Below are positions 964-33,648 of a stretch of 35,022 nucleotides of DNA, one piece after another. Under the pieces are notes generated by a model that worked only from the letters and a program-made list of their open reading frames with translations, was not told the DNA's origin and did no database searches. Origin of the DNA: Reclinomonas americana ATCC 50394 (lineage: Eukaryota); NCBI GenBank assembly GCA_048213135.1, contig PS015209.1:1-35022 (forward strand). Direction: 5' to 3'. Numbering within the stretch: the first letter of the stretch is position 1; every line of letters starts with the position of its first letter. The position numbers and the translations under genes are program-made.

Positions 964-3611
964 ATGCGATTAAAAGCGCGACTGTCGCTCATTCTCGCGC
1001 TGCATTTCTTTGCGCTTGTGTGCATCCTGCCCGTTCTCATCACACATGCCAAAGTGCAAGGTGCGGCGACTGTTTTTCGCCAATGTGCGCGCATATTGTT
1101 TTTTGACTCACTCTTCTTCTCTCGCTCGCTCGCTCTTGTGCACAGGCGATGTTACATGGTTTCCTGGAACGTTGCGCACATCTCACCCTCACTGTGTGTG
1201 TTTCGCCCACGCGCTCACTTCTCGCGTTTTTTGTGTTTTGTAAGTGAGGGCGTGAAAGAGTATGCACATGAGCTGGCCTACTCGGGCTCTCTGGTGGTTC
1301 TCGGCAACTCGGCGGGCGGCTTTGCCTCGATGAATCCCGACGACTTTTCGCTGGGAAAACTCGGCCCCTTTGTCGTCGATCATCAAATTCGTGAGTCCGT
1401 TCGCGCAGAGACAGAGACGGTGTTGCTCACCTCCATTGTGTGTGCGTGTGTGAGCAGCTGGGACGTATTCTAGAGTATCGGCCTTCAATCAGACCGCGGC
1501 ATTTGCGTACAACAACACGGTGTGGACGATGGATGCGATGAATGGCGAGTGGAACACGCGATCGTCGGTGGTGCAGACCGATTGGATTAGTTGCGCTTCT
1601 CCCTCTCTCTCTCTCTGGTGTTGCATATCGCAGCGTGGATGCTGATGTGTACCCGAGGAACAGTTGATCGCGTGTTCATCTTCCGCGCGGTTGACGATCC
1701 ACCACTGGCCATGAACATGTTTATCGCCGGCGTGCAGCAGAGCACGGTGATGGTGTACACGTCGATGAGTCCGCAGTCGCCGTGGGTCCTCAATCAGACG
1801 CTGACGGTGCCCGATGCCGGTGCGCTGCTGTCTCTCGTTGTTGAGATGATGAGTTCTCCTTGTGCGCAAGCTAAAGGTGGGCACCGCAGGACCGTCGTTT
1901 GGCACGGCCATGGCCGGCTATCACTCGTATGTGGCGATCTCGGAGCCGTCGAACGGAGCCGGCCTGGTGCACATGTTCAACCAGCAGCCAGGCAAGCACA
2001 CTGCTCTTGGTGCGCAGACTGTTGGCCCTGCTCACTGCTCTCCCCCGTGCAGGAACGCGTGTATGGACGTACTTTTCCACGATTGATGGGTTGGAGGATG
2101 TGCGTGCCGGCAGCCAGTTTGGCTCGTCGCTTTCGTGGAACAAGTGGTTCTTTATTGTGGGCTCGCGGTATGCGGGTACCCTGCGGCAAGGTGCCGCTGT
2201 GTTGTATCTACCCACGCAACCAGTTTCCCTGGTTTGTGTTTGCGTGCTGCTTCTCAGCATCCGCCTCTCGTACCTCACGCTCTCTGTGCCCCCCGACAGG
2301 GTCTCAATCTCACTCGCGGATGGGTCTTTGATGGCGAACCGAGTTCTGGATTCGGTGCCTCGCTCGGCATGGTGCGCGAGTCAAGCTCGGGCGATTCACA
2401 CGCGCACACACTGACACTTGATTTTCTTCTTCTTCTTCTTCTTCTTCTGCGCAGGATGCCAATGACAACTCTGACGGCACAGCCGACATTAACGTCGTGG
2501 TTGGTGCACCAGCGATTGGTCAGGCGTTCTTGTACAAGTGCATCACCACACAATATGTGAATGCTACGGTTGCGTAAACAATTCCTCTCTCCTTTCCTCG
2601 AGCTGTGCTTTTGTTCACCGCGTGCCTCGGCGCGCAGTGCGAGCGCGCTGATGTGCTGATTGGTCGATACACGAGCGACGGCGTTGGTCTCAGTGTGGCG
2701 TTTCCACCGCAGCGCATCCTCCTTGGTGCTCCATGTTGCGTTTTTTTCATTCTCATTTCTTTGCACGAGCTCCGTGTACGATTGCTGAAACGGGACGCTT
2801 TGCGCAGTTGGCCCGAATCGCACCAAGGACTCGCAGGGATTGCTGTACTCGTTTGGCTACTGCTACGATCGGTACGCACGAGTCAAGCAATCCGAGATTC
2901 TGGTGTGCCGTCGCTGCCAACCCGACTGTGGAGAGACTGGTGGATTCGCCGAGGGCTGCTGCGGCAGCTTTTTCACATACCGCATCACCTACTTCTTGTT
3001 CTTGGTGTCGCTGGTCGGCTTGTGCATGCTCACGTGTTGCTGCAAGACTCTTCCGCGAGCGGTTTTCGAGGGCTGCCTACGCGGCTGTGCCTATTTGTTG
3101 TGTCGGTGCGTGTACATCTTATGCGGCGCACGTGCATGGCATGTCACGCGCTCACTCTGTTCTCCTACGCACGAGCAGACGCGCAGTTGTACAGTACCGA
3201 AACACGGGCGAGCTACCGGCCGGACCGTGGCGTCGTCTCCAAATGTTCCTGCTCGGCCGACGGGATCCACCCATTTTCCTCGACGACTCGTTTGCGCTGG
3301 CCCCTGTACGCCGCCAGGTTGAAGTGATGGACTCGCAAGTCCAAAGTTCAACTCACCTGGTCGACGTGGACAAGGCCGACCGAGCCTACCTCATGTGCCG
3401 CCAGTGCCACCAACGCGAGATCAACGTGTTGCTCGTCCCCTGTGGTCACGAGGTCCAGTCCGTGTGGTTGTTGTTTGTCTGTTCACCATGCGGTGATGCT
3501 GACTCTATACTCTTGGCGCAGGCGTACTGTCTCGAGTGTGCCGAGGACTTCTTGAGGTGCCCACTGTGCCAGCAGCCTGTCGAAAGATGGGTTCGTATCT
3601 ATCCCATCTAA
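964..3611 (+). CDS. Predicted type I membrane protein (~586 aa, 13 exons): signal peptide, FG-GAP/integrin-alpha-like repeats, Cys-rich stalk, TM helix, C-terminal C3HC4 RING
   Basis: Exons 964-1060, 1146-1170, 1245-1390, 1458-1589, 1664-1819, 1890-1991, 2053-2222, 2300-2371, 2455-2556, 2638-2734, 2808-3105, 3179-3452, 3522-3611 sum to 1761 nt in one open frame. Hydrophobic N-terminus MRLKARLSLILALHFFALVCILPVLITHA. Repeats FGTAMA..VAISEP, FGSSLS..FIVGSR, FGASLG..VVVGAP, VGLSVA..ILLGAP. TM ITYFLFLVSLVGLCMLTCCC. RING CRQC..VPCGH..CLEC..CPLC. Confidence 0.8.
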
Positions 3612-3729
3612 GTGTAAAAATGTCGTTGCCTTGCGTGTACTTGGGAAGATTGTTTGCTTTTTTCGTTTCATTTGACTGCGAGGGCTTTGTTTGCACACAC
3701 GCACGCGCACACGCACACATGCAGACACA

Positions 3730-6700
3730 CTATTTCATCCACCGTATGCCAGCCACCGCCATGCCGACCTCGGCCACGTCGCACACGGTGCACACGTGAC
3801 CCTGATACGACGGCGAGAAGGAGGCGAAGCAGTACGGGCACTTGATCGAGGCGTTGCCTGCATGCATGGCGATAAGCAGACTGCCGAATAACAAACAAAA
3901 AGACACATGGACTGATGCAACGCACCACGGAAGATTGGAGTTAACGTGCCGGCGCACACGACAAACGGATTGCGGTCGTCGTAGTTGATGCCAGTCTCCT
4001 GCACTGTCACCTTGGCCGCCGTGCTGGCCGCCATCTCAATGACCTTGCGCGCCTGTGCTGTCACCTCCGGCTTGGGGTTGAGATCCACCAGACGCTTGGC
4101 GAATGACGAAGCCACCGGCAAGTTGTTCTGCTTGTACGCAATCGTCATGCCAGAACTGCGCGAAGACGATGATCAGCAGCAGTAGGGACGACTTCGATCC
4201 CACCAAGGCATACGCACCGGAGTGCCAGCACGAGATGTGTTGGTGCCAGCTGGCAGTGCGTAAAGTAGGCGGCCAGCTCGAGACCGCGAACCGGGTTCGA
4301 CGTGGTCTCCTTGCGTGTGGCCTCCAGGTTCAACGCAATCACGTACTCGCGCGACTCGTTCACCAACTCACGCAGCTGTCGCCAGGCACGGTGAGCACAA
4401 GAACCGAAACATCTCCCTTCTCCTAATCGCTCGTCACGCACCTTGCCCGTCTCCTCGCGACTCTCCACGCAGATGCAGAGGCAGCCGTGCAACACCGACT
4501 TGAACAGCAACTGAGCCTCGCCGAAGCGACCGGCAGTGAATGCTGCATGACCTGCTGCTTGCCGCTCGGCGAGCGCAGCAACGGACAGTGGCGACGCCGG
4601 CTGGCTGCGCGACTGGTCCGCGATCGTGTCGGCGTTGCGCTGCGCAGAATAGAAAGAGACGGGTGAGCGCGTGTGCGTGAACACGAAAGCACACAGTGGA
4701 AATGCGCACCGCCAACGTGTGCATGAGTGGTGGCAAGCCAGGGAAGGTGGAGCCGACAGCGTGTGCCGACATGTACAGCGACATGAACAACTGGCGGAGT
4801 GGTGCAAAGTTGACCACACCGGCAGTGCGATTGAGAATCTGCGTGCGCGGAAGCGAGTGAGTAAGGATGACTCTTTCTCTCTCTCTCCAGTTCATGATTA
4901 CCTGCATGGCCGACTGGAAGGAGCCTGCAGCAATGTGATCGGCAGCCACCTGCGACCCGTCGCACCAGCGCTGCTCGACGGCTGGTCCAGGGGGCGGTGG
5001 GATGGAAAAGTCCNNNNNNNNNNNNNNNNNNNNNNNNNNNNNNNNNNNNNNNNNNNNNNNNNNNNNNNNNNNNNNNNNNNNNNNNNNNNNNNNNNNNNNN
5101 NNNNNNNNNNNNNNNNNNNNNNNNNNNNNNNNNNNNNNNNNNNNNNNNNNNNNNNNNNNNNNNNNNNNNNNNNNNNNNNNNNNNNNNNNNNNNNNNNNNN
5201 NNNNNNNNNNNNNNNNNNNNNNNNNNNNNNNNNNNNNNNNNNNNNNNNNNNNNNNNNNNNNNNNNNNNNNNNNNNNNNNNNNNNNNNNNNNNNNNNNNNN
5301 NNNNNNNNNNNNNNNNNNNNNNNNNNNNNNNNNNNNNNNNNNNNNNNNNNNNNNNNNNNNNNNNNNNNNNNNNNNNNNNNNNNNNNNNNNNNNNNNNNNN
5401 NNNNNNNNNNNNNNNNNNNNNNNNNNNNNNNNNNNNNNNNNNNNNNNNNNNNNNNNNNNNNNNNNNNNNNNNNNNNNNNNNNNNNNNNNNNNNNNNNNNN
5501 NNNNNNNNNNNNNNNNNNNNNNNNNNNNNNNNNNNNNNTTGCCGCCAGCAGCCGACGACGAGCCACCCGGCATTGTCAACTTGCTGCCACCGGCCGGTGC
5601 ACCAACCAAATCGCCCAAATCCAACTCACCCCAGCCGTCCTCGCCGTCCTCGTCGCCACCGCCAATGCCACTGCCACCCGCCGCCGGCAGTCCGGGCACA
5701 ACTGCATGTAACCGGGCTTTCAATACACCTGTTGTCGCCAGCAAGTAGACAGGGACTGAGCAAGACGCAACAGCCCGGCTCATCAAAGCGCAGATCGGTG
5801 TCCCAGCCGCCAGCATCGGCGGCCACCACTGGAATCTCCGACTCGGGAATGTCACGCAGACGACCATCCTCCGTGAACACATTTTCGAAGAAGCTCTTGG
5901 TGATCTGTGCGTCGACCACCACGTCAGCGACTGTCGCTTGATCACTGGTCAACAAAACGCAACGTTCAAGAACGGCCAGTCTTGCTCCTCGGCAGCGTAA
6001 ATCGGCGTCGGAGGGAACAGCAGCTCCGCATCGGGTGCCGGCTCCGGCAGACCCAAGTCAATCTCTCCCGCCTCCTCCTCTGCATCGCGTTGTCATCAGC
6101 AACAAGCCTTCCTGAGAAGATTCACACGCAGCAGTCGCACGCACCGCTCACGCCCAGTTGCGCCAGCTTTTCCCGCTTGATACGATCGCGCAGCGCCTGT
6201 GCAATTTCGTCCAGTCCGTGCGTGGCCGCCGTCAGGTACGCCAGCCGCACTACAGCAAGCAATGTGAGCACCGGATGGAAGAGAGACACGTGCGCGGTGC
6301 ACAGGGTAATCGCACCTTGTCCGACACGCAGCAGCACCTTGATGCGCTCCTCGGCGTCGCCAAGGTACAACGCAGTGTGGAACTGTGCCATGCGGTCATC
6401 ACGACCCTCGGCCAGCGCACTGAGCTGGCGCAACTTCTCCACGTTGCCAGTCATCATGTACAGGAATGACAGGCGATCGTAGTCCTCATTGCGGTGATAC
6501 GCAAGTGCCATGGACTGGTGAGAGGTGAACGATGAGACGAAGGTAGATGAGAGAGAGAGAGAGAGAGAGAGCGCGCGTGTGACGGAAACGCACCCGCAGG
6601 TTGCCGTGCTGCAACGCCTCCTCGGCCAGCTTCTCGTACGACTCCTTGTCCTTCAGGGTCTTGGCGAGTTCTGCGCGACAAGGACTCTCGTGGTGAGACC

Positions 6701-9224
6701 GATTCTCTTTGTCACACTTCGTACCACGAAGAAAGAACAGACCAGTGGCTCGCTGCAAGTCGCCGCACTCGAGCGCCAGGTTGAAGCGCGTCTTGGGATC
6801 TTGTGCGAAATTCATGGCAATCTGCATTCGCTAGCGGTGAGCGCTCACGACGATGAGAACAAGAGCGTGCACGGCAGACGTGACCTCGGGGAAGCCCTTC
6901 TTCTGCAAGAAGCCAATGATCGACTGGCCGTGCAGCTTGGCGTGGCTGAGAATGCGGAAGATCTCGTCGTTGCGTCGCTCGAGGAGAGCGCGCTTGAAGT
7001 TGTACTCGGTGGTGTCGACGTAGGTGAGGCCGACCTGACCGTTGCGGTCGAGGTAGTGCACGGCCTTGTCGCGCACACGCACAACGTAGACCGCCTGCTT
7101 CAGAGTCTGCACAATGCCATTGTCGCTGATGACACACAATTCGTCAGTTAACTCTGGCGACCAGTGCCAACAAGCGACAAGCGCCGTCACTCACCCCGAC
7201 GGCAACAGGTACTTGAGGTGGTTCAGCGTAGAGTAGATGAAGACACCAGTGTCGTCAAACACGCCGCTCTTGATGCGCACGGCCTCGTAGACGGTGCACA
7301 GGAACTCCAGCTTCTGGGTGGCCAGAGTCACATCTGTATGGAACATAAGCACGAGGACGCAGAAGAGATCATCTGTCCGCAAGCAGACACGCAACTCTGC
7401 TTGCTCATCAGAGCGACCACTTGATAATCCGACGACCACGCCACCATGCGCAGACCGGCGGCGACAATGCTGCCGAGAATGCGACCCTGTATGATGCACG
7501 ACGACGATTGAGTTCTTCTCTCATCCCTGCCCTCCGTCGATCACAATGACACGACGCAACATTGGCCTCCATCAGCACAACGCGGTCCTCGAGACGCAGC
7601 AGCATCTGGCGAGGCGGGCCCGGGAAAATGGCCTCCACCACCGAGTTGGCCACCGGCACAATCTTGCTCTCCGGGTTGTCGAGGTAGCGCAGGTTGACGC
7701 GCTTTTCACGATCGAGCACCACAATGCGATTGCGGCCGGAGAAGAAGGCTTGCTTGCCGGCGGCATACTGCAAATCACACTGCATGAGCAAAAGGGGGCG
7801 CGAGTGACGGGCAGAGGAGTAGGGGAGAACGCACTCTGACTTCCGAGGAGCNNNNNNNNNNNNNNNNNNNNTGCAACGAGCCGTCCGAGGGCGTGGCGCC
7901 CTTTTGGCGCAGCGCTACGAGGATAACACAAAGAAGCGGTGAACAACAACAACAACAGCGACGATGGAGAAGGCAGAGAGACGCAACCGCCAATGTCCCA
8001 CACGCGAATGGTCTGGTCCAGCGACGCCGAGACCAGCAGGTATTCCTTCGGGTGGAAGAACGCCGACATGACGTAGTGATTGTGGCCCGTCAGCACCGCC
8101 ACCGACGTGCTACGCGATTCTCCTCGTTAAGAAAGCACAAGGCGGGGGAATGCAGGAAGAGGATGAACACACCGATTCTGGAAATTCCAGATGCGCACAG
8201 TCTGATCGTCGGATGCCGACACGATCCACGGCTGCTCCCAGTGGAACTGCACCGTGCGCACAAAGTCCAGATGGCCACGCAGTGTGAACAGGCACTTGCG
8301 CTGCTTGTAGTTCCACACTGCACCGCAAACAATCTCGATCAGAGACAACTCTCTCCACAGCCAGCGCATTCCCTTGTGATCTCTCACCTTTCACCAGCCA
8401 GTCATCGCCACCACTGCAGAACTGCGGCAGCGAGTGGTGGAAATCAACACCACGCACGGGTCCTGCACGACGCGTGTGAGTGTTATGAGTGTGCAGGCGA
8501 CATGGCGCGAACTCGACACGTGTGTGAAAAAGTGCGTGCACCGTGTCACAGATGGCCGAGTGCAGAACAAGGCATGGATAAGCACACATGAAAGAGAGAC
8601 AGGCTCATTCTCATCCACCGCGTGGAGAGAGCGCGCGCGCCATGTCCACCCTCTTCTTCTTCCTCCTTCCTCCTCTCTCGTCTTCATCTCTTTGTCTATG
8701 GTGGTGCGTGTGAGCTCTCTCACCATCATGATCCTCGAACTTGTCGATGAGCGTGAGCATCTGGTAGTCTGCAGAGACGGGTGTGAGCGCACACACAAGA
8801 TAAAAGAAACATGATACTTCTCCCTCAGCGACTCACCCCACAGCTGGATGCAACTGTGTGCGCAAACATAGGCGACGTGAGCGAAGAGGAGGATGTGCAC
8901 CGAGCGTGACACACACGCAGACAAGAGAGAAGGAGGGAAGGAGAGAAGGAGTGCGCGCGTGCAATGACCAACAACAACGAGGCACTCACCCTGTGTGCAG
9001 CGACACGAGGATCCATGGTCGATCGGGGTGGAAGCTGTGTATACGCGTCAGCCACGTGAGCAAGCAGCACGCCAGTGAGATGAGTGCGGTGATGAACGAA
9101 TTTGCTCTCCCATCAACCCAGGTGACATGTGTGTGCATTTTGTGTGCGCGCGTGTGTGCGCGTGTGTGCATACGTGCCTCAGGCCCTTGACGCGGGCGCT
9201 CTTGGTTTCGAACTTGAGAAGCAT
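3730..9224 (-). CDS. COPA: Coatomer subunit alpha (alpha-COP), multi-exon, interrupted by two assembly gaps
   Basis: Starts [33 protein letters not shown]40 segments [31 protein letters not shown] and [13 protein letters not shown]. Core motifs [20 protein letters not shown] and [12 protein letters not shown]-terminus [18 protein letters not shown], stop at 3730. Confidence 0.97.
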
Positions 9225-9322
9225 CTCGCAAGGACGAGCAATGAGCTGAGCTGTACATGCTCGAATTTTCGCGCCCCCATGCGTTTCATTCATCGGAAAC
9301 TGAACTGCTCTCTCACATCGCA
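9225..9322. promoter_or_regulatory. Putative bidirectional promoter (COPA / CFAP157-like)
   Basis: 98 nt between divergent ATGs. Confidence 0.55.
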
Positions 9323-11770
9323 ATGTCGGAGAAGAAGAAGAAGAAGAAGGGCAAGAAGGGTGGCGACAAGAAGGGCTCTGCCGGCGCCGACGATGACACA
9401 CCGCAGCTGAGCGAGTTGGAGTGTTGCGTGCCCCGCCCACGTGTGTGTCTGTGGATTCATGAAAGAGATGATTCATGTGTCCGATCGCAGTGGCCACGGC
9501 CAAGGCTCTCGAGCTGGAGCGCACTGTGCAGGCCATGGAGGAGAACCAACACAATCTGTTGCGTCCATGCGCCCGTGCTCACCCTCGACTTCAGCCGCCC
9601 ACTCATCTCCTCAACACACAGGGAGGTGACCAATGAGCGTCTGTCATTCCGCTGCCGTAAGCTGGAGCAAGCGGTGGCCGATGCCAAGGCGGAGAAGGTT
9701 GGGTGCAAGAGTGTGTGCTTTGCACACCAGGCCTGCCTCTCACCGTCCCCGTCGCTGCGCGCAGTCGGATCTGTATCAGTACATGAGCGCCGAGATGAAG
9801 CGCGTGGACCGGGAGCGGCAGGGTGAAATCGCCGAGTTGCAGCGCGAGCTGAGCCAGCGCCTCCTGGAGAACTCCACCCTCGGTACGATATGCTGTCTTG
9901 CTGTGGTCAGGGTCAACACACTTGTATGCTCACTGGCTGCGGCGCAGAGGTTGCGGTGGTGTCCAAGACGGACGAGCTGCGCGTCAGCCGGATCATGACG
10001 GCCGAGGAGGTGGCGCTGGCCACGCAAAGGAAAGATGTACTGCAGCGCTACACGCTGGAAAGAGTGCGTCATTCGTCCTCCTCGCCACGTGCGAAGCTGG
10101 AGTTCACCCGTTCATGTGCGCACAGAGTCAACTCGAGTACTCGGTCAACACGCTAAAGGACGAGCTGCACATGTTCAAGTACGAGCGGTACAAGATGGAG
10201 GCCGAAGTCGAGAAGCACTTTATGCGAGTTGCGTGGGCGGCAGGCGAACGCACTTCAATTCACGCCGTGCTCACGCATGGAATGTGCATACAGGAGATTC
10301 AAAAGCTGCGCAACGAGAACAAGAACCTGCGGCAAGAGGTGGCTGACTGCAAGGAGCGTGAGCGTGCACGCAACAGCTTTGCACAACTGGTTCGCGAAAC
10401 CATTCACCATGCATCCCACGCTGTGCTTCCGTTTCCTCACTCCTCTCTATAGCAAGCCGACGGCATTCTTGACGAGAACACGCGAATGACTGCGGAGATC
10501 GCCACCAACGAGCATCACATTGCCGAGCTGATGGCAGAGATCCAGCAACTGAAGCAAGACGTGGAAAAGCAGCGACAGGAGAACGATCTGCAGGTGGAGG
10601 CCAACAAGCTGCTGACGCTGCGCAACCAGCAGCAGGCAGCGATTGTCCGCAAGCTGACCAAGTCGCTGGAGGCACTGCAAAAGGCCGTGGTTGCACGGGA
10701 GTCCGATCACGCGCGGCGTGACGAGGAGAGTCGACAGAACGAGCAACGCACCATGGCGTCGATGGCCGACGAGATTGACGATCTGAAGCGAGAGATCTTT
10801 GTGTTGGATCAGGTTTGTTTGCAGGGGTCGGGAGAAGGTGATGTGCTTGAGCTCATCTCGTTGGTGCTGTCACAGGAGCTGCAACGACTGGAGCAAGCAC
10901 GTGAAGATGTCGTGCAGCAGGCCAGGCAGCGCAAGGATCTCGAGGACGACGTGTACCAGTTCCTGCTGGATGCCATGGATGAAGTGCGCAGCGTGCTGCA
11001 ATCTCGGTGAGCCAGGCACTTCTTCTTTCTGAGAAGACATGTGCTCTCTCTCACACCGACACATCGTCAGCGAACAACTACGCTCGCCGGACTCGACAGG
11101 CTCCCGACCCGACACGGTCAGTGTGCCATGCATGCGTTTCCGCCCGTTTCCCATTTTTCTCACTCTCCTTACAGGTTTCGCCATCGAGTTCCCCACCGCC
11201 GTCGCGCAAGCGACTCCCAGCAGCACAAACCCGCACGCCGAGCCGAGTGCGCGATTCGCCACCGATCCAAGGGCACGTGGCGAGATCGCTCTCACGATCC
11301 AGACCGATTTCAGTGGAATCCGTCGACAGCGACAGCACGGCCACACAACGACGGACCGCAACACCCGACCTCGTGCGCTCGTCTACCGCGCAATCCGGCG
11401 ACTCGCTGTTATCGCTCTCCGGCAGCACATTGTCACTGGTACTTGTCTGCTCCCACTTTTATCTGTGTTCTTCGAAAACTCCCCTCAAAAGTACATCTCG
11501 CAGTCGCGTGGTCCACTGGCCTCGTGCACATCGCAGGAGCGCGACGTCATTCTCGACTTTTTGTTCACCAAGGTCAAGCAGACGCGTTTCTTGCAGCAAG
11601 CCACCGCCGCCGGTAATCGGAAGCCGGCACACCGCGGATCGCTGCCATGTTGCGTGCACTCCCTTGTCGTGCAGTGCCGGGATGTTGCCCTTCTCACTCG
11701 TCTCTTGCTGCACACAGCCATCCATTCTCCGTCAAACTCTGCAGTGGCGCACAATGCCAGCACACCATGA
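9323..11770 (+). CDS. Cilia/basal-body coiled-coil protein, CFAP157-like (BBOF1 also possible); 3' end approximate
   Basis: Lys-rich start MSEKKKKKKGKKGG, then a long spliced heptad-rich coil (LQRYTLERSQLEYSVNTLKDEL..EVEKHFMREIQKLR; ILDENTRMTAEI..RNQQQAAIVRKLTKSL). This resembles CFAP157 from memory. Late motif LASCTSQERDVILDFLFTKV. GT-AG introns keep the frame. Confidence 0.65.
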
Positions 11771-11902
11771 AGCGGGGCAGTGAAAGAGACTTTGTTGCTA
11801 TAGTACGACATTCGATTCACTCTTTTCTTTCCTCTCTCCCTCCCGCCTCCCGCTGTCCTTCGCTCATTCCGCCCCTCACCGCGCTCCCATTCACCACGTC
11901 GC

Positions 11903-23666: not shown

Positions 23667-23969
23667 GCCGACGAAGACGACCCCGCGCAAGACGAGGAAG
23701 AGGAGCTGATGGAGGATGAAGAAGAAGAAGAGCAGGCGCAAGGATTCAACGCAGAAGATGATGAGGATGAAGACGAGGATGAGGATGATGATGATGATGC
23801 GGCGTGGGCCAACTGGAACAATGAGACGCTGTGTGCGCGCTGTCACAAGGCCGGCTTGCTGTTGTGCTGTGATTTGTGTCCGTCGAGCTTTCATCCGGTG
23901 AGGGAAGGAGCGGGGGAAGAGCGGCAAGCAGGGGGAATGCTAGAGGGGTGGAAGCCGAGAGTTTTGAAC

Positions 23970-24035
<66 letters not shown>

Positions 24036-24074
24036 GAGACGAGAGAGAGAGAGAGGAGGGAGGGGAGGGGGAGG

Positions 24075-24121
<47 letters not shown>

Positions 24122-24161
24122 NNNNNNNNNNNNNNNNNNNNNNNNNNNNNNNNNNNNNNAG

Positions 24162-24205
<44 letters not shown>

Positions 24206-27200
24206 ACGCAGAGAGAGTAAAGACTGAGTAAGAGAGATGGAGAGAGTGTGAGAGAGGAGGGCGACACCAGATTGAACTGTGTCGGTGCAATGCTGCTTCG
24301 TGCTGCTGCACTGTCGGAGGAACACTCCCTGAGATGTGGTGTGATATGCAGTTGGTCAGGAACACACCGCAAGTGAGGAAGTCTGTCTGTGCAAATATTT
24401 GTGTCGCTCCTTGCTTCTCTTTCTTTCTCTCTCTCACAGGCGCTCGTAAGCTGGGTTCGGAAATGTTGTACAGCAGCCTTCTCTTTCCTTCATGTTCTCG
24501 CTCTCTCTCATTCTCGCTCTGTCGCGGGATGCCGCAGCTGTCGCTTTCCGTCATGCTCTCTCCCCCCTTCTTTATCCATCTATCTCTCTCTCCCTCTCAC
24601 TCTCAATCCCTGTGTCCTCTTTCCTCACCATGATCTGTGTGCACCGCAGGAATGCATCGGGATGACCATGGCAGATGTGCCGGATGGCGAATGGTACTGC
24701 CCCTTCTGCAAGGTATCGTCACCCCCTATTTTGGTGCACCCTTCCACCCGCCTCTTCCTCACCACGAGTCTGTCTCGCCACAGGATCCGCAACTGGCCAA
24801 GCGCATGGCACGCAAGCGCTTCCTCAAGGTTCCCATCTTCATCATCATCATCTTCTTCTTCTTCATTGTTGTCGCACTCGCCTGAAGCCCGCCGCAGGAC
24901 GCCGACGAGATTGTGATGAAGCGCAGACGGATGCGTGGCGTGCCGATTGAGCAGCAGGCGCGAGAAAAGGAGCATGGCTTTGGCAGGGCACGCAAGTTTG
25001 AGATTAGCAACTTTCTGCAGTTTCGGCGCTACTGGATCACCTTGCACGACAACGACCGGCGGAAGCGAGAGGCTTTCTTTGCGCACTTTTCCGATGTTGC
25101 GTCTTGCCATTCACCTTGCACTTCACCGCCACCGCTAATCATCCGCACCACCACTGTGCAGAGTGCCGACATTCTCGAGGGTACCGAAGGCCGCGACACG
25201 CCGCCGACACTTGCACTGGCAATGCTCGCCGCCGCCGGCGCGGGACCGAGTGGCACCAGCAGCACGACAACGACGACAACAACAACAACAACGATGAGTT
25301 CCATTGGTGGCACGGGTGGTGGCATTGGTGGCGGCCTCGGCGGTAGCGGCAGTGGTGTCTCTGGTGGTGTGGGTGGAATCGGCGCGGCTGCTGCCGCAGG
25401 TGGTGGTGGTGGTGGCAGCAGCAGTGGTGGTGGTTCGGTCGTTGGTGGCAGTGGCGCGAGTGCATTCCATCACGCGGCCGGGATGAGTGGAGGAGGCCTT
25501 GATGTTGACGGGCGACCGCGTCGTGTGAGCAAGCGCACCGTCACCTTCAACTACGATGATGTGGATGCGATGAGCGGTGGCGGTGGTGGTGTCTTGGCAC
25601 CCGAATCGCCACTGTTGCGAGCTGCGGCGGCTGGTAAGTGTGAAGCACAGTGCCTCCTCCTCCTGCACACTCGCTCACGTTTCGTGTATTAGGTGGTGGT
25701 CCCGGCGGCGCCTCTGCCGACAAGGACTCGGGTGCAGAGGACCGCGCACATGCGCCTTATCCCCTGACACCCGTGGCCAACGTGCTGCCGTCGCAACAGG
25801 CACCCACACTGGCGGCGGCCGCCGATGCCTCGTCTCTCACGGAGAACTGTCCGTACGCGCGACGGAGTTGCGTGGACACACACTCGTGCATGATGATTGT
25901 TGAGTGACCCGCACTGACAAGCCACGGTGCCTCGCAGTCCTGTCGCCCGCCGAGACCGACATGATCAAGCAGATTGGCGCAGAGGTCGGTTCCGTGTGGG
26001 AGTGCTACTTCCAGCGAGTGGCTCCACTGGTGCCGGAGATGGTGGCTCTGCGCGAGATGGACGAACTGCTGGGCGAGCAGCGTGAGCGAGCCAAGCTGAA
26101 GGAGAACTTTTTGCTGCAGTTCATGCCCGCGGCGAAGAAGGTGGTGCAGGAGGCGAGTGAGGGTCGTGCGAGGGAGTGGAACATGCGGCCGCTGGTGTTG
26201 CGGTGGCGGTACAACAAGGAGACGCCGGCGGACTGGCGGGTGATGTCGTCGGTGAGTGGGATGTGGGGAAGGGAGAAGGGAGAAGAGAGAGAGAGAGAAA
26301 GAAAGAAGGAGAAGGCTGAGGGGAGGACAGGGCGAGTACGAGAGAGATGACGAGAGAGAGGAACACGTGTGGAAGCGAGGGCGGAATGCGAGAAAGAGAC
26401 ACGGCTTGGGAAACGAAGGAGGCACTGTGTGAAAGAAGCAAGTTTGTCTGCGCTCTGCGTGTGTTAACAGAGGTTGTTTCGAGCGAATATGAGGATAAGT
26501 AAGAAAGATGTGCGACAACGAGGGATTTCAATCGATAGAGGATGTGCGATGGGAAGAAAGCCGTGTTGTGGGAGGGATAGAAGTCTGTCTGTGTGTTGAC
26601 CAAGGTTGTTGAAAGGGAAGAAACACGAAGTATGTCAGTGAGCAGGTTTGAGATTGATAGAAGTAGAGAGAGTGTGTGTGAGAGAGAGAGAGCAAAGAGA
26701 GAACACAGAGAGATGTGTGTTGTGTGAAGGAAAGAAGGTTGTCGGTCGCTTAGGTGCGAGAGAGAAAGTGAAGGGAAAGAATGTTGTCTGTCGCTTCGTT
26801 TGTGTTGGCAGAGGTTGCGAAAGTGATAAGAAAGAGACAAGAGGGGTGCGAGAGAGAAAGTGAAGGGAATAAGGTTGTCTGTTGCTTTGTTTGTGTCGAC
26901 AGTGGTTGTTGAGAATGAATAGGAAGAGAGAAGAGAGGTTTGTGTGAGAGAGAGTGAAGGGAAGAAGGTTGTCTGTCGCTTTGTGTCGAGAAAAGGAAAA
27001 GGAAGAGACAAGAAGTGCGAGAGAGAAAGTGAAGGGAATAAGGTTGTCTGTTGCAATGTTTGTGTCGACAGTGGTTGTTGAGAAGGAATAGAAAGAGACA
27101 AGAGAGGTGCGATAGAGAAAGTGAAGAGAAAGTAGGTTGTCTGTCGCTTTGTTTGTGTCGACATGGGTTTATGGAAGAGATAAGAAGAGAAATGAAGCAA

Positions 27201-28550: not shown

Positions 28551-29879
28551 TTACTCGATAGCCAGGGTCGTCTTGACAATCATGCCCGCCACAATGTAGG
28601 GGTCGCTGTTGGAGGCCGGGCGGCGATCCTCAAAGTAGCCGCGCTGGTCGCGGTGAGTGAAGCGCGGGATGCGGATCGAGGCACCGCGGTTGGCGACGCC
28701 ATAGCTGAACTTGTTGAACGGCGCAGTCTCGTGCTTGCCCGTCAGGCGCTTCTCGTTGCCCTCGCCGTAGCCCTTCATGTGCTCCTCGTGCTTCTCACCG
28801 AGGCGCTCGACGGCCTGGATGATCTCGGCGTAGCCGCCCTCCTCGCGCATCTTCTTGGTCGAGTAGTTGGTGTGGCAGCCGGCACCGTTCCAGTCGCCGT
28901 GCTCCACCGGCTTGGGGTTGAACGAGACCTCGACAAACATGTCCTCGGCCACGCGCTGCAGCAGGTAGCGGGCCATCCACAAGTGGTCGCCAATCTCAAT
29001 GCCGTGGCAAATGCCGACCTGGAACTCCCACTGGCCGGGCATGACCTCGGCATTGGCGCCGGCAATCTTCACGCCAGCAAACAGGCAGGCGCGGTAGTGT
29101 GCCTCGACCACGTCGCGGCCAATGGCGTTGAGCGCGCCCACACCGCAGTAGTACGGACCCTGGGGGCGCGGGTAGCCAAACTCGGGGAAGCCGAGCGGGC
29201 GGCCAGTCATGGGGTCAATGAGCGTGTACTCCTGCTCAATGCCAAACCATGGCTCGTCGCCAGCAGCGCGCTCCATGACGCGGGCGCACTCGGCGCGGTG
29301 GTTGTTGGGCAGCGCCGAGCCGTCGGGGTAGTACGTGTCGCACATGACGAGGATGTTGTTGCCGCGGCGGAAGGGATCGCGGAAAATCGCGCGCGGCTTC
29401 ATGTACACCTCCGAATCGTGTCCGGGGGCCTGGTTGGTCGACGAGCCGTCGTAGTTCCACAGCGGCAGGTCCTCGGGGCCATTGACGGGGCCATGGACCG
29501 TCATCGTCTTGCCACGAATGTCGTTCTCAAAGCCAGCGCCCAGCCAAATGTACTCGGCAGTGATGACGCCCTCCGGCAGAGGGAGCTCCATGTAGTGCGC
29601 CTTGACCGCCTGTATTGGAGGNNNNNNNNNNNNNNNNNNNNCAAGGAAAATGGTGAGTAAATTGCACGTCTTTTTGGACAGACACACAGCAACTCCGGAT
29701 TGAGCACGGAAGCTTCCTTCTTCCTCAAACAAGAGCACGAAAGGAAAAAAACACGAGGGAGCGGCATGACTGATGCACGCGACAAATACAACAGCGCAGA
29801 CAGAGAGAAAAAAAGAGACACACAAAAACGATTTTGCACTCACCCGCGGGTCAATGCTCTGGGGCCTCAGGTGGTGCAT
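28551..29879 (-). CDS. GLUL: Glutamine synthetase type II, 2 coding exons
   Basis: [12 protein letters not shown]|intron|[106 protein letters not shown]. Confidence 0.97.
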
Positions 29880-32289
29880 GATTGAAGGTTGGTTAACTGG
29901 AGGAGTTGGGGGGTAACGGGGTAGGCTGGCGCGGCTGTCAAGCAGGCGACTGTTGCAGTAAACAAAAAATGGTGAGAATAATGCATACAAGAGAGAAGAG
30001 AGAGTGGATAGGAAGGAGGAGGAGCAGGGAGAAGAGGAGGGGAGAGTTGAGGGGGGGAGCAAACTGAAAGAGAGTCGCGTGTACGATGAGATGAGGGGGA
30101 GTCGAGGGAGAGTGTGGTCAAGACGGAGGAACGCGGTATCTCACAGAGGAGAGAAGAGGGAAGAACCATGAGGGAGAGGGCAAGGAAGAAAGCAAGAGAG
30201 GGAACAAAGAAAGGGAAAAGAGGGAAGACCGCCTCACCTTGGCTCTCGAGACGAGGAGAAAAAGAAGATGAACAGCGTCTAAAAGTGACAAGCTTTCCCA
30301 ATCGGGATGTCCGAAAGCAGCGCGTGTCTCACCACACTTTTTTTGCTTGCGTCACACACTCACTCGCATCCACGCGCAACGAGACGCAGGCACGATGCAC
30401 TGCGTGAGTGTGCACATGCAGATGAGACGCAAAGCGCGCGCGACAAAGTGTGTGGCGAGAAAATATGAACACACGCCAGATTCGGAGATTCGCGAGACAG
30501 GGGGAAGAAGCTCCCTGTCGTTAGTCGTGAGACGCACAAAGTGGGGGAGAGTCGCGGAAAGACAGTACGCAAATTGAGTGCACAATCACGGACGCGGTGG
30601 AAGGGAGATCGGGCAAGCGCGCGCGCGAATCTCGTTTGTCATGTGTCTTGCGCACATTTGAGAGGCGATTGGCGGCCCGTCTCCGCCACACAACACGGAC
30701 GTGTGTGTCACTGTGAGTGTGATTCATCAGTGTATGTGCGGATTGTAAACTCTTGTGCTGTTTCAGCGGCGCTGCATCAGTTTGATTTGCTCGTGAAGTG
30801 TCTCTGTTGTTTGTGCAAGAGCACGAGGTGGTGAAGTGCAGGATAGGAGGTGGCGCATGCATATGGATATTGCAGTTGGTGGTCGCGATTGTGAAACAGC
30901 ATGACGCTGCGCCTGTTTTTCGTGCTGGTGGTCATGCGGCCACTCATGACGCACGATGGCAGGAAGGGAGATACAGCATGCGCAACAGTCCTGTCGATCT
31001 GTGGCTGCAGCTGTGGCAGCTCATTCAAGATGAGAGTGCAGGCGATCCAGCAAGGCAAGCGATCGCGATCGAGTGAGCGCAAAGAAAGGAGAAGAGGAGA
31101 AGAGAAGGAGAAGAAGAATGACGGGAGGAGGGAGGGGAGGAAAGACATGCCGGGCAAGCAAGCACGTCAGCAAGCGATCGACAAGCCACGAAGAGCCACG
31201 TAGCAGGCTTTTCAGCAAGCGATCAAGCATCGCACTTGTCGACGGGCAAGAAAGAGAGACACACAGAGACATCCACAAATGCAAGAGGCTGCGGTCGACC
31301 GCTGTGCTGAGGGCGGTGATTCGGCAGACAAGTGGGAGAGCCGGGCAAGCAAGCAAGCAAACGATCGGGCTCCAGTACGCGCAACGAAAGCCATGCAGCA
31401 GATCCACGCGCGATCATCACAGAAGCTTATGGCTGAGATCCGATCGAGAGGGAGAGCCGGATAAGCAAGCAGGCGCCACGCAAAAAAACGCGATGCAGCA
31501 AGGCAGTTGCTGCACAGGCACCGACGACGATCGTACATGCCGTTTCGATGACGCAACGCCCCCCACGCACTGTTGGGGTGTTTTGCGCACAGCAGCAGCG
31601 ATCGCGAGGCAACCACGAGCCCAACTCACAACGCAATACAGAAACTCTTGCAGTCAGTCTCGCAGCTCAAAACAAAGCACGCCACAGAGAGACAGAAGAG
31701 TGCGAAGTGTGCAGGAAACGCATTGTGCAGAANNNNNNNNNNNNNNNNNNNNNNNNNNNNNNNNNNNNNNNNNNNNNNNNNNNNNNNNNNNNNNNNNNNN
31801 NNNNNNNNNNNNNNNNNNNNNNNNNNNNNNNNNNNNNNNNNNNNNNNNNNNNNNNNNNNNNNNNNNNNNNNNNNNNNNNNNNNNNNNNNNNNNNNNNNNN
31901 NNNNNNNNNNNNNNNNNNNNNNNNNNNNNNNNNNNNNNNNNNNNNNNNNNNNNNNNNNNNNNNNNNNNNNNNNNNNNNNNNNNNNNNNNNNNNNNNNNNN
32001 NNNNNNNNNNNNNNNNNNNNNNNNNNNNNNNNNNNNNNNNNNNNNNNNNNNNNNNNNNNNNNNNNNNNNNNNNNNNNNNNNNNNNNNNNNNNNNNNNNNN
32101 NNNNNNNNNNNNNNNNNNNNNNNNNNNNNNNNNNNNNNNNNNNNNNNNNNNNNNNNNNNNNNNNNNNNNNNNNNNNNNNNNNNNNNNNNNNNNNNNNNNN
32201 NNNNNNNNNNNNNNNNNNNNNNNNNNNNNNNNNNNNNNNNNNNNNNNNNNNNNNNNNNNNNNNNNNNNNNNNNNNNCGCGACTCACACT

Positions 32290-32330
32290 AGATGCATCTC
32301 TCTCTCTCACTCTCTCTCTCTCTCTCTCTC

Positions 32331-32373
<43 letters not shown>

Positions 32374-32509
32374 ACACCTCACTGTGCAGACCTCACTGTG
32401 CAGACCTCACTGTGCAGACCTCACTGTGCTTGTGCTGTGATCTCACTGTGCTTGTGCTGTGATCTCACTGCGCACACTCACATGATGCATTCTTTTCTCA
32501 CACTCTCAT

Positions 32510-32543
<34 letters not shown>

Positions 32544-32811
32544 CACCTCACTGCAGCGCTCACATGCTTGTGCACTCAACGCGTTGATGCATTCTTTGTC
32601 TTTGTCAGCGCTGACCTCGCTGCACATTCTCACGTTGATGCACTCCCTGTCGCTCACACTCACACGTTCACCAGCTCTGTCTCTGCCTCTCTCCGCGGCG
32701 CACACCTCGCTGTGTCGCACAGTCTCGCCTGCTCACTTGATGATTGATGCGTTCTCCTCTCTCTCGTTTCGCTGGTCGCACTGCACACTCAACACGTTGA
32801 TGCACTCTCTG

Positions 32812-32849
<38 letters not shown>

Positions 32850-33430
32850 CTCTCTGCACACACTTCGCTTTGTCGCATGCTGCCGCTTCTGCACTCAACA
32901 CGCGATGCATTCTGCCTCTGCCAACGCTGATCTCAGTCTCTCTCATGCACACCAATCTGTTCACAGTCTCTGTCTCTCTCCCTCACGGCGCCAATCTCGC
33001 TGCGTCGCACACGCACGCCTGTGCACTCAACGCATCGCTGCTCTCTCTCTCTCTCTGTGTCTGCCAACGTTGATCGCGCTACACGCAACGCGTTCATGCG
33101 TTCTTTGTCTCTGTCAGCGCACTCCTCGCTGTGTCGCGCAGGACTCGCCTGCATGCTCGTTTGTTGATGCATTCTGCTTCACACACACACACGCACTCTC
33201 ACTCTCTCCGCACACCATGTTGTGTCGCATGCTCACGCTTCTACACTTATCACGTGATGCATTCTCTGTGTCTGCCGACGCTGTTCTCGCTGTGCACACG
33301 CTTGCACACTCATGGTGATAAATTCTCTCTGTCGCTCCAACTCACACACATATACGTTCACCTGCTCCGTGTCAGTCTCTCTTCCCCAGCGCACACCTTG
33401 CTGTGTCGTACTGGTTGATGCACTCTCTCT
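32290..33430. repeat. Low-complexity intronic repeat region: (CT)n, (GT)n, 14-mer CTCACTGTGCAGAC tandem, recurring TGATGCA(T/C)TC units
   Basis: 14-mer tandem at about 32378-32428. TGATGCA(T/C)TC recurs repeatedly from about 32483 to 33425. Confidence 0.8.
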
Positions 33431-33498
33431 ATCCCTTCCCCTCCCTTCCCCTATCCCTCACCCCCCTCCCTCCTCCCTTCCCCTTCCCCTCCACCCAG

Positions 33499-33648
33499 CA
33501 CTGGACAGATCTCCGTCTGGCAGCACGATTCGGCCTCGGGCGACCGGAGCGCGCCGCAGCCGTGTTGAGATTGCAGCAGTACCGCGGCGACTTTGAAAAG
33601 GCGGTCGCCGAGCTGCCGTCAAAGCCCAAGAGCGCGGAGGCCGAGGCT
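33499..33648 (+). CDS. Internal exon of an unidentified gene, possibly a UBA-like helical motif
   Basis: Long pyrimidine tract and CAG acceptor at 33498. The only frame open up to the gap reads HWTDLRLAARFGLGRPERAAAVLRLQQYRGDFEKAVAELPSKPK. Confidence 0.4.

Follow-up and report, generated by a model that had tools for sequence, protein, structure and literature searches.

The donor class reported here has its closest described counterparts in human genes, in the +1 shifted-register 5' splice sites, reportedly described by Roca and Krainer in 2009. In this register, all pairs between the 5' splice site and U1 small nuclear RNA (snRNA) are moved by one position with cleavage kept at the GU, and the validated noncanonical registers together are estimated to make up 1.5% of human 5' splice sites (accessible text of Tan et al. 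2016, PMC4856993). The class considered here consists of introns beginning with GTTGCG in a stretch of 35,022 nucleotides (nt) from Reclinomonas americana ATCC 50394 (assembly GCA_048213135.1, contig PS015209.1, positions 1 to 35,022 of the forward strand; "the window" refers to this whole stretch). It resembles the human sites in that GUUGCGU stands to G/GUGCGU (the slash marking the exon-intron boundary) as a human shifted site stands to the consensus. The two differ in that the human sites are rare, whereas the class makes up 20 of 65 introns here, is almost one fixed word, and is tied to the last base of the exon and to coding constraint; the case is made here from sequence.

Other described systems share single features with this locus. 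A donor peculiarity that runs through a lineage is known from the Archamoebae, for which the accessible text of Roy and Bowser (bioRxiv 10.1101/2022.06.08.495308) matches the donor GUUUGU with the U1 arm AACAAAC in Entamoeba and the donor GUGCGC with ACGUAC in Mastigamoeba. The G predicted below opposite intron position +4 equals the Mastigamoeba change, but each of those two lineages has a single consensus, which is read in the normal register, whereas here both classes occur side by side in the same genes and U1 is only predicted. Two main groups of 5' splice site, AG//GU and //GURAG, with anticorrelated exon-side and intron-side strength, are described in the accessible parts of PMC9803359, PMC11732430, and PMC11842720. 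The donors of the window likewise fall into two classes; however, both of the described classes are normal-register sites with one strong side, whereas GTTGCG in the normal register lacks both G at the last exon position (G-1) and G at the fifth intron position (G+5). Sites with a bulge at +2 or +3 (PMC4856993, accessible text) are similar in having one extra U between the GU and the pairing block, but a benefit from G-1 is expected of them and is unseen here. Donors of the diplonemid type were considered and rejected, since those are (G)/GTATG according to the accessible text of PMC12621601. A literature search covering main texts turned up neither an account of a GTTGCG donor class nor one of splice signals in jakobids, and the accessible part of PMC8134430 mentions only partial assemblies of R. 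americana. The present analysis adds a background control, a GCG-only rule with a U1 prediction, and a codon-constraint test.

GTTGCG words and intron starts

The first-pass annotation of this DNA had listed 19 GTTGCG words as donors and regarded several of them as fixed by conserved COPA or RalGAP sequence. All 19 words are in place, in coordinate and strand alike; each begins a short intron of the GT-AG type in a gene model whose translation is uninterrupted, and six genes have unbroken translation once all 19 introns are removed. The word occurs 52 times on the two strands of the window, compared with 27.5 +/- 5.0 times in shuffled sequence (0 of 100 shuffles reach 52). Across the six gene spans, 28 copies are in sense and 11 in antisense, and 20 of the 28 sense copies are intron starts. 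This number includes one extra candidate at 2569, which has an in-phase rival donor at 2557 (tat/GTGAATGC). The curated set comprises 65 introns in the six genes of the window, 20 with GTTGCG donors and 45 others, so that the class accounts for about three in ten introns.

Six of the 19 junctions are placed exactly by a majority of homologues, in agreement with the earlier claim of conserved anchoring. The spliced protein-to-DNA aligner used for this purpose accepts any GT..AG intron of 35-400 nt and scores no donor motif; the range was widened to 35-1100 nt in the RalGAP alignment with 36 homologues. Alignment of COPA with 14 full-length homologues places 19 introns by majority, including the GTTGCG introns with donors at 7560 (14/14 votes), 7395 (13/14), and 5963 (12/14). 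RalGAP was aligned with 10 homologues in a first pass and then with 36, which place nine introns by majority, including those with donors at 17871 (31/36, all 31 gap-free), 16400 (26/36), and 21387 (21/36); many library homologues align with the 278-residue exon upstream of 21387 as far as residues 273-277. The homology-fixed set is therefore 28 introns (6 GTTGCG and 22 others). Homologue support is lower in poorly conserved stretches, at 5771 (4/14), 20465 (4/36), and 7987 (3/14), the last of which draws few votes because only 14 codons are left before a gap of 20 Ns. Three first-pass RalGAP "introns" (17226-17548, 16898-17215, and 16626-16874) were dropped, since an alignment that permitted longer introns joined them into a single intron of 893 nt. 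In database searches, the nearest relatives share ~37% identity for COPA, 68% over a short core for RalGAP, and 66% for glutamine synthetase II, and the top RalGAP matches are from Pharyngomonas and Andalucia (both Discoba).

Gene finding that is blind to the motif points to the same word. A donor-agnostic dynamic-programming gene finder, which scores coding potential and intron length and, as sequence signals, just GT, YAG, and a branch-like word, gives GTTGCG as the most enriched GTNNNN word at its donors (12 of 111 versus 1.42 expected, p=2.3e-8). The early gene finders, based on codon usage versus the other frames, predicted too much, joined genes on opposite strands, and put ordinary donors in the wrong place; they are used for the enrichment test only. 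After the coding-versus-intron score was retrained on verified intron interiors, the later motif-blind finder placed GTTGCG at 15 of 70 donors, with 14 of these 15 on the first-pass list. Open reading frame (ORF) scoring of individual sites discriminated poorly.

These data bear on the possibility that the class is an artefact of the gene models, with the true junctions at nearby ordinary donors and GTTGCG just a frequent intronic or exonic word. Thirteen of the 19 sites rest on our own models and not on a homologue majority, and the weakest of the 19, at 1171, requires an AAG acceptor, follows a 25-nt exon, and was left unpicked by two later gene-finder runs. An artefact would nevertheless have to account for the six junctions fixed by homologue majority without the motif, for the top enrichment of GTTGCG at motif-blind donors, and for the excess of sense copies, most of which are intron starts. 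In addition, none of the 20 sites has an in-phase GT with both G-1 and G+5 within 18 nt, and nine have no in-phase GT whatsoever within that distance. Such an artefact is considered very improbable. As far as gene models and homologues can establish, GTTGCG(T) is confirmed as the real 5' end of ordinary short U2-type introns, and the support is strong at the six homology-fixed sites.

In every other respect compared, the GTTGCG introns are similar to their neighbours. Their lengths range from 58 to 78 nt, with a median of 68.5 nt versus 68 nt for a subset of 21 ordinary introns. All 20 begin with GT and end with AG, and their acceptors are CAG (18), TAG (1), and AAG (1), compared with CAG at 19 of 21 others. 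A branch-like YTNAY word lies near the 3' end of 16 of 20 GTTGCG introns and 43 of 45 other introns, and the median distance between the last branch A and the 3' end is 18 nt in either class. U12-type introns carry the donor [AG]TATCC and the branch motif TCCTTAAC; this type was rejected, as the donor motif is found at 0 of 20 GTTGCG introns (and 0 of 45 others) and the branch motif with at most one mismatch at 1 of 20 versus 1 of 45. The identical start of 6-7 nt and the similar lengths could also suggest shared descent, with the introns being copies of a mobile introner-like element that carries the word at its end. However, ordinary introns resemble one another in their interiors at least as much as the GTTGCG introns do (a mean score in local alignments of 7.8 for the GTTGCG class versus 8.4 in the 21-intron subset, with maxima of 17 versus 22), lengths and acceptors are the same as in other introns, and no introner-like family is found in the window, which makes this explanation extremely unlikely.

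The class is also narrowly bounded. Position +7 is T in 17 of 20 GTTGCG donors, mirroring the T at +6 of ordinary donors. Other donors that begin with GTT (G/GTTCGC at 10390 and 20065, aag/GTTGGGTG, and aag/GTTCCCAT) all follow G, and G+5 is present in both GTTCGC donors and in GTTGGG; these are thus ordinary-register sites, and the special class is therefore GTTGCG(T) and not GTT generally. Among ordinary donors, GTGAG and GTGCG are about equally frequent (7:7 in the homology-fixed set, 8:10 in the motif-blind set, and 13:15 in the curated set), whereas the corresponding ratios of GTTGCG to GTTGAG are 6:0, 15:0, and 20:0. The resulting GCG-only bias of the GTTG class versus ordinary donors has p=0.051 in the homology-fixed set and p=0.0036 in the motif-blind set. 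The window contains 16 GTTGAG words, none of which is an intron start; a repeat array at 32.3-33.1 kb holds four of the 16.

The exon-final base

Two further observations of the first-pass annotation concerned the last exon base, namely that 18 of the 19 GTTGCG donors have a base other than G there, with 7987 the exception, and that ordinary donors mostly follow G. Both are correct. In the homology-fixed set, G-1 is found at 0 of 6 GTTGCG donors versus 21 of 22 other donors (p=1.9e-5), and in the curated set at 2 of 20 versus 40 of 45 (p=1e-9). The accompanying rule that donors without G+5 compensate by G-1 is inapplicable, since the GTTGCG class has neither. The contrast with ordinary donors must be read against the background frequency of G before similar words: G precedes 14 of 117 occurrences of the six other GTTGNN hexamers in the window and 6 of the 52 GTTGCG words, and the frequency of G-1 at the GTTGCG donors (1 of 19) is the same as this background (p=0.69). 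G is thus rare before any GTTG word; the class dispenses with G-1 and shows no avoidance of it.

The sole non-G exception counted among the ordinary homology-fixed donors is the COPA junction 6080-6183 (atc/GTATCA), with 12 of 14 votes. Its true donor is probably gcg/GTGCGTGC at 6144, with 6183 a misplacement. The clearest ordinary donors without G-1 are at 10064 on the plus strand (aga/GTGCGTCA) and 18117 on the minus strand (agc/GTGCGTCA), which share eight identical bases.

The codons at the exon ends suggest what the class may be for. In the motif-aided model, each of the six phase-0 GTTGCG introns whose upstream exon ends in a base other than G comes after AAT, AAC, GAC, or GAT, codons in which G at the last position would turn Asn into Lys or Asp into Glu. 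By comparison, 60% of the codons in the models that end in A, C, or T have a synonymous form ending in G, a contrast with the six phase-0 cases that has p=0.004; when the intron at 10228, which follows CGA, is counted, one of seven has a synonymous G form (p=0.018). Where an intron is in phase 1 or 2, having G at -1 would in every case alter the residue. From the bias at phase 0 and the residue changes at phases 1 and 2, it follows that the GTTGCG form occurs where the protein forbids an exon-final G.

Proposed register of U1 pairing

The first-pass annotation had described GTTGCG as GTGCG with one extra T, and the description is apt, as H/GTTGCGT (H being A, C, or T) and G/GTGCGT differ at one position when right-aligned. 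It had further suggested that these sites are routinely recognized in a bulged or shifted register, or by a variant U1 or U6 snRNA. Of the two registers the shifted one fits better, and we consider it somewhat probable that GTTGCG donors are read in a one-base-shifted register that is used where the protein forbids an exon-final G. The U1 5' arm would then bind these sites one base out of step, with the intron G+1 filling the slot held by the exon G-1 at ordinary donors, U+2 forming the single mismatch, and U+3 to U+7 (UGCGU) pairing like +2 to +6 of G/GUGCGU. The cut, fixed at a later stage by U5 and U6, would still fall ahead of the GU. In effect, where an exon is unable to end in G, the intron would bring its own.

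In the bulged register, G+1 and U+2 keep their normal pairs, a single U (+2 or +3) is pushed out as a bulge, and the pairing of GCGU matches that at ordinary donors. By hand count it yields as many pairs as the shifted register, and bulge +2/+3 registers have been validated in human cells (PMC4856993, accessible text). A bulge would leave C9 of U1 free for the exon G-1, so that a gain from G-1, and hence its enrichment, would be expected; instead, G-1 stands at 2 of 20, compared with 14 of 117 in the background and 40 of 45 at ordinary donors, which renders the bulge improbable. In two COPA introns on the minus strand, 6822-6884 and 6671-6742, the donor lies after G and departs from the consensus (gag/GTCACGTC; ctg/GTCTGTTC); both introns are supported by 14 of 14 homologues. 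The word GTCACGT has CGT at +5 to +7, as does GTTGCGT, and might be a bulged site.

The identity of the U1 arm affects how well the shifted register accommodates the observed donors. The standard U1 arm is ACUUACC. Counted by hand against this arm, and on the assumption of such a U1, GUUGCGU would form four Watson-Crick pairs and one wobble in the shifted register, versus two and one in the normal register. The numbers of mismatches with the standard arm (hand count) would be one for G/GUGCGU, zero for G/GUGAGU, two for /GUUGCGU, and one for /GUUGAGU. With an arm that has G opposite +4, as in Mastigamoeba ACGUAC, the same four donors would have zero, one, one, and two mismatches; none of the three observed donor types would then exceed one mismatch, and GUUGAGU, which is unseen, would have two. 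Since ordinary donors use GAG and GCG equally and the shifted class uses GCG only, a U1 with G opposite intron +4 is predicted, with an arm like ACG[U/C]ACC, or else a second U1. The lack of GTTGAG donors argues against a simple shift on a standard U1 and lends indirect support to a non-standard U1 5' arm. A more specific version is possible, though we advance it tentatively and with less confidence than the shifted register itself: a routine two-register donor code on one non-standard U1 (G opposite +4, exactly one mismatch tolerated), with G/GUG(C/A)GU used after an exon-final G and /GUUGCGU, read one base out of step, used where the protein forbids such a G.

The two classes could instead be served by two U1 snRNAs, the second being a dedicated variant whose 5' arm, ACGCAAC, is fully complementary to GUUGCGU in the normal register. 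A tight match to one RNA would be expected to produce a class that is nearly one fixed word (GTTGCG at 20 of 20 donors, T at +7 in 17 of 20) and that lacks GTTGAG members, and U1 arms that co-evolved with donors are described in Entamoeba and Mastigamoeba (bioRxiv 10.1101/2022.06.08.495308, accessible text). However, no such RNA was found in the window by the Rfam search, and a single U1 with G opposite +4 and two registers covers the same data with one RNA. A second U1 is judged unlikely.

Several points weigh against the shifted-register reading. Every junction is inferred from sequence, a search for sequencing runs with positions 5539-13398 having listed no RNA, and the curated set and the gene-finder run aided by a position weight matrix were motif-guided, so that their counts are not independent of the motif. 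At GTTGCG donors, G-1 is at the background level and not depleted. On a standard U1, the shifted helix would have two mismatches and should prefer GUUGAGU, but there are 0 GTTGAG donors versus 15-20 GTTGCG donors; the simplest form of the shifted register therefore fails, and an extra assumption about U1 is needed. The U1 pairing partner is itself assumed, because no U1, U5, or U6 gene was seen in the window: the Rfam search gave 0 matches at the gathering threshold, and the hits with E<=1 were only sub-threshold matches resembling microRNAs or small nucleolar RNAs, with no snRNA among them. In addition, U6 would also need to act in an unusual register. Finally, Thecamonas and the Mamiellales prefer C at +4 and have kept a standard U1, according to the accessible text of Roy and Bowser (bioRxiv 10.1101/2022.06.08.495308), so that a preference for C at +4 is alone no proof of a changed U1.

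If RNA confirms these junctions, a way of recognizing 5' splice sites that is known only from rare sites in humans would serve about one-third of the introns in a free-living protist as a matter of routine. The locus would then offer a natural system for the uncoupling of U1 binding from cleavage choice and for the handling of an extra base by U6. The reading makes a concrete, checkable prediction for the U1 5' arm and links the donor type to the exon-end codon. Were the two-register code true, that codon would predict the donor class, and at about one in three introns the position of the cut would depend on U5 and U6 instead of U1. As a practical matter, training a gene finder on ordinary donors would leave about three in ten introns of this genome misplaced or missed.

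Features of the window

The window is gene-dense, with a GC content of mostly 44-58% (38.5% in the 32-34 kb bin) and 11 runs of N that total 3,299 bases. Typical introns are 58-79 nt long and end in CAG. Genes were placed by Pfam searches on long open frames together with our own gene models (Table 1). Some GTTGCG introns have variant readings. The intron at 1590 has an alternative in-frame acceptor at 1633 (44 nt) with the donor unchanged, the motif-aided finder pairs the donor at 18484 with an acceptor at 18361, and the agnostic finder run uses a donor at 25849 in place of 25867 with the acceptor unchanged. The intron with its donor at 7560 was picked by all gene-finder runs except the first. 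Removal of the intron at 10228 yields an unbroken coiled coil, and its retention inserts 22 unlike residues; reading through the donor at 20465 meets a stop after 69 nt.

Table 1. GTTGCG introns and genes of the window (lower case, last exon bases; votes, number of homologues supporting the junction; agnostic, donor-agnostic gene finder; ORF, fits the open reading frame model).
Feature	Coordinates	Strand	Length (nt)	Donor	Evidence and remarks
GTTGCG intron, gene A	1171..1244	+	74	aac/GTTGCGCA	ends TGTAAG; fits full ORF model only; upstream exon 1146-1170
GTTGCG intron, gene A	1590..1663	+	74	tta/GTTGCGCT	agnostic; ORF
Extra candidate GTTGCG intron beyond the 19, gene A	2569..2637	+		acg/GTTGCGTA	G at -1; motif-aided finder; ORF
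GTTGCG intron, gene A	2735..2807	+	73	cat/GTTGCGTT	picked only with intron-side donor scoring; ORF, exon end ...LLGAP
GTTGCG intron, COPA	5702..5771	-	70	gct/GTTGCGTC	agnostic; 4/14 votes, poorly conserved linker; ORF
GTTGCG intron, COPA	5905..5963	-	59	aac/GTTGCGTT	phase 0 after Asn; 12/14 votes, 10 gap-free within 8 residues each side
GTTGCG intron, COPA	7334..7395	-	62	aga/GTTGCGTG	13/14 votes, 12 gap-free
GTTGCG intron, COPA	7487..7560	-	74	aat/GTTGCGTC	phase 0 after Asn; 14/14 votes, none gap-free within 8 residues
GTTGCG intron, COPA	7915..7987	-	73	gcg/GTTGCGTC	ends TCGTAG; sole G-1 of the 19; 3/14 votes; several gene-finder runs; ORF
GTTGCG intron, coiled-coil gene C	9423..9490	+	68	agt/GTTGCGTG	agnostic; ORF
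GTTGCG intron, gene C	9558..9621	+	64	tct/GTTGCGTC	agnostic; ORF
GTTGCG intron, gene C	10228..10293	+	66	cga/GTTGCGTG	phase 0 after CGA; picked by early finder run, not by two later runs
GTTGCG intron, LRR gene	12443..12512	-	70	gac/GTTGCGTG	phase 0 after Asp; agnostic; ORF
GTTGCG intron, RalGAP, Rap_GAP domain	16336..16400	-	65	aac/GTTGCGCA	phase 0 after Asn; 9/10 and 26/36 votes
GTTGCG intron, RalGAP	17811..17871	-	61	tga/GTTGCGTG	10/10 (all gap-free) and 31/36 votes (all 31 gap-free)
GTTGCG intron, RalGAP	18427..18484	-	58	ctc/GTTGCGTC	ORF model only; no homologue majority
GTTGCG intron, RalGAP	20398..20465	-	68	gat/GTTGCGTC	phase 0 after Asp; agnostic; 4/36 votes; ORF
GTTGCG intron, RalGAP, end of RALGAPB_N domain	21310..21387	-	78	cga/GTTGCGTG	3/10 and 21/36 votes; every gene-finder run
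GTTGCG intron, gene F	25096..25161	+	66	gat/GTTGCGTC	phase 0 after Asp; agnostic; ORF
GTTGCG intron, gene F	25867..25937	+	71	gga/GTTGCGTG	only with intron-side donor scoring; ORF
Metallophosphatase fragment	to about 720	-			
Gene A	964-3613	+			signal peptide, FG-GAP-like repeats, transmembrane segment, RING
COPA	3731-9040	-			
Gene C, coiled coil	from 9323	+			
LRR gene	11904-12769	-			
Tim10	ending at 15789	+			
RalGAP alpha-like	15825 to about 23100	-			
Gene F	24691-26434	+			
Glutamine synthetase II	28552-29621	-			intronless

The gene A product, with FG-GAP-like repeats of the integrin-alpha type, one transmembrane segment, and a C-terminal RING, is an unusual combination of an extracellular propeller with a cytoplasmic E3 ligase domain; the gene has 12 introns, and its exons include the 25-nt exon 1146-1170. 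The gene for type II glutamine synthetase (best database identity of 66%) is complete and contains no intron, and its neighbour genes have one intron per ~100-300 bases. The 20-N runs at 7852-7871, 23415-23434, and 29622-29641 look like assembly gaps, and at the first of these COPA is without the part that matches homologue residues ~170-400.

RalGAP contains two very long introns on the minus strand, 16626-17518 and 21924-22802, which measure 893 and 879 nt versus a median of 68 and have ordinary donors after G (30/36 and 18/36 votes, respectively). In the 893-nt intron, CT-rich and AG-rich blocks alternate; it folds somewhat better than shuffled sequence (z -2.66) and gives sub-threshold Rfam matches to MIR408 and MIR2118. 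The region 32277-33500 is a degenerate dispersed repeat array with units of ~105-215 nt, a purine-rich minus strand, a GC content of 38.5%, and strong skews. Each unit carries two blocks, GAATGCATCAACG(T/C)GTTGAGTGC and GCGACACAGCGAGGTGTGCGC, together with a (GA)n run; TRF finds only the simple-repeat parts of the array.

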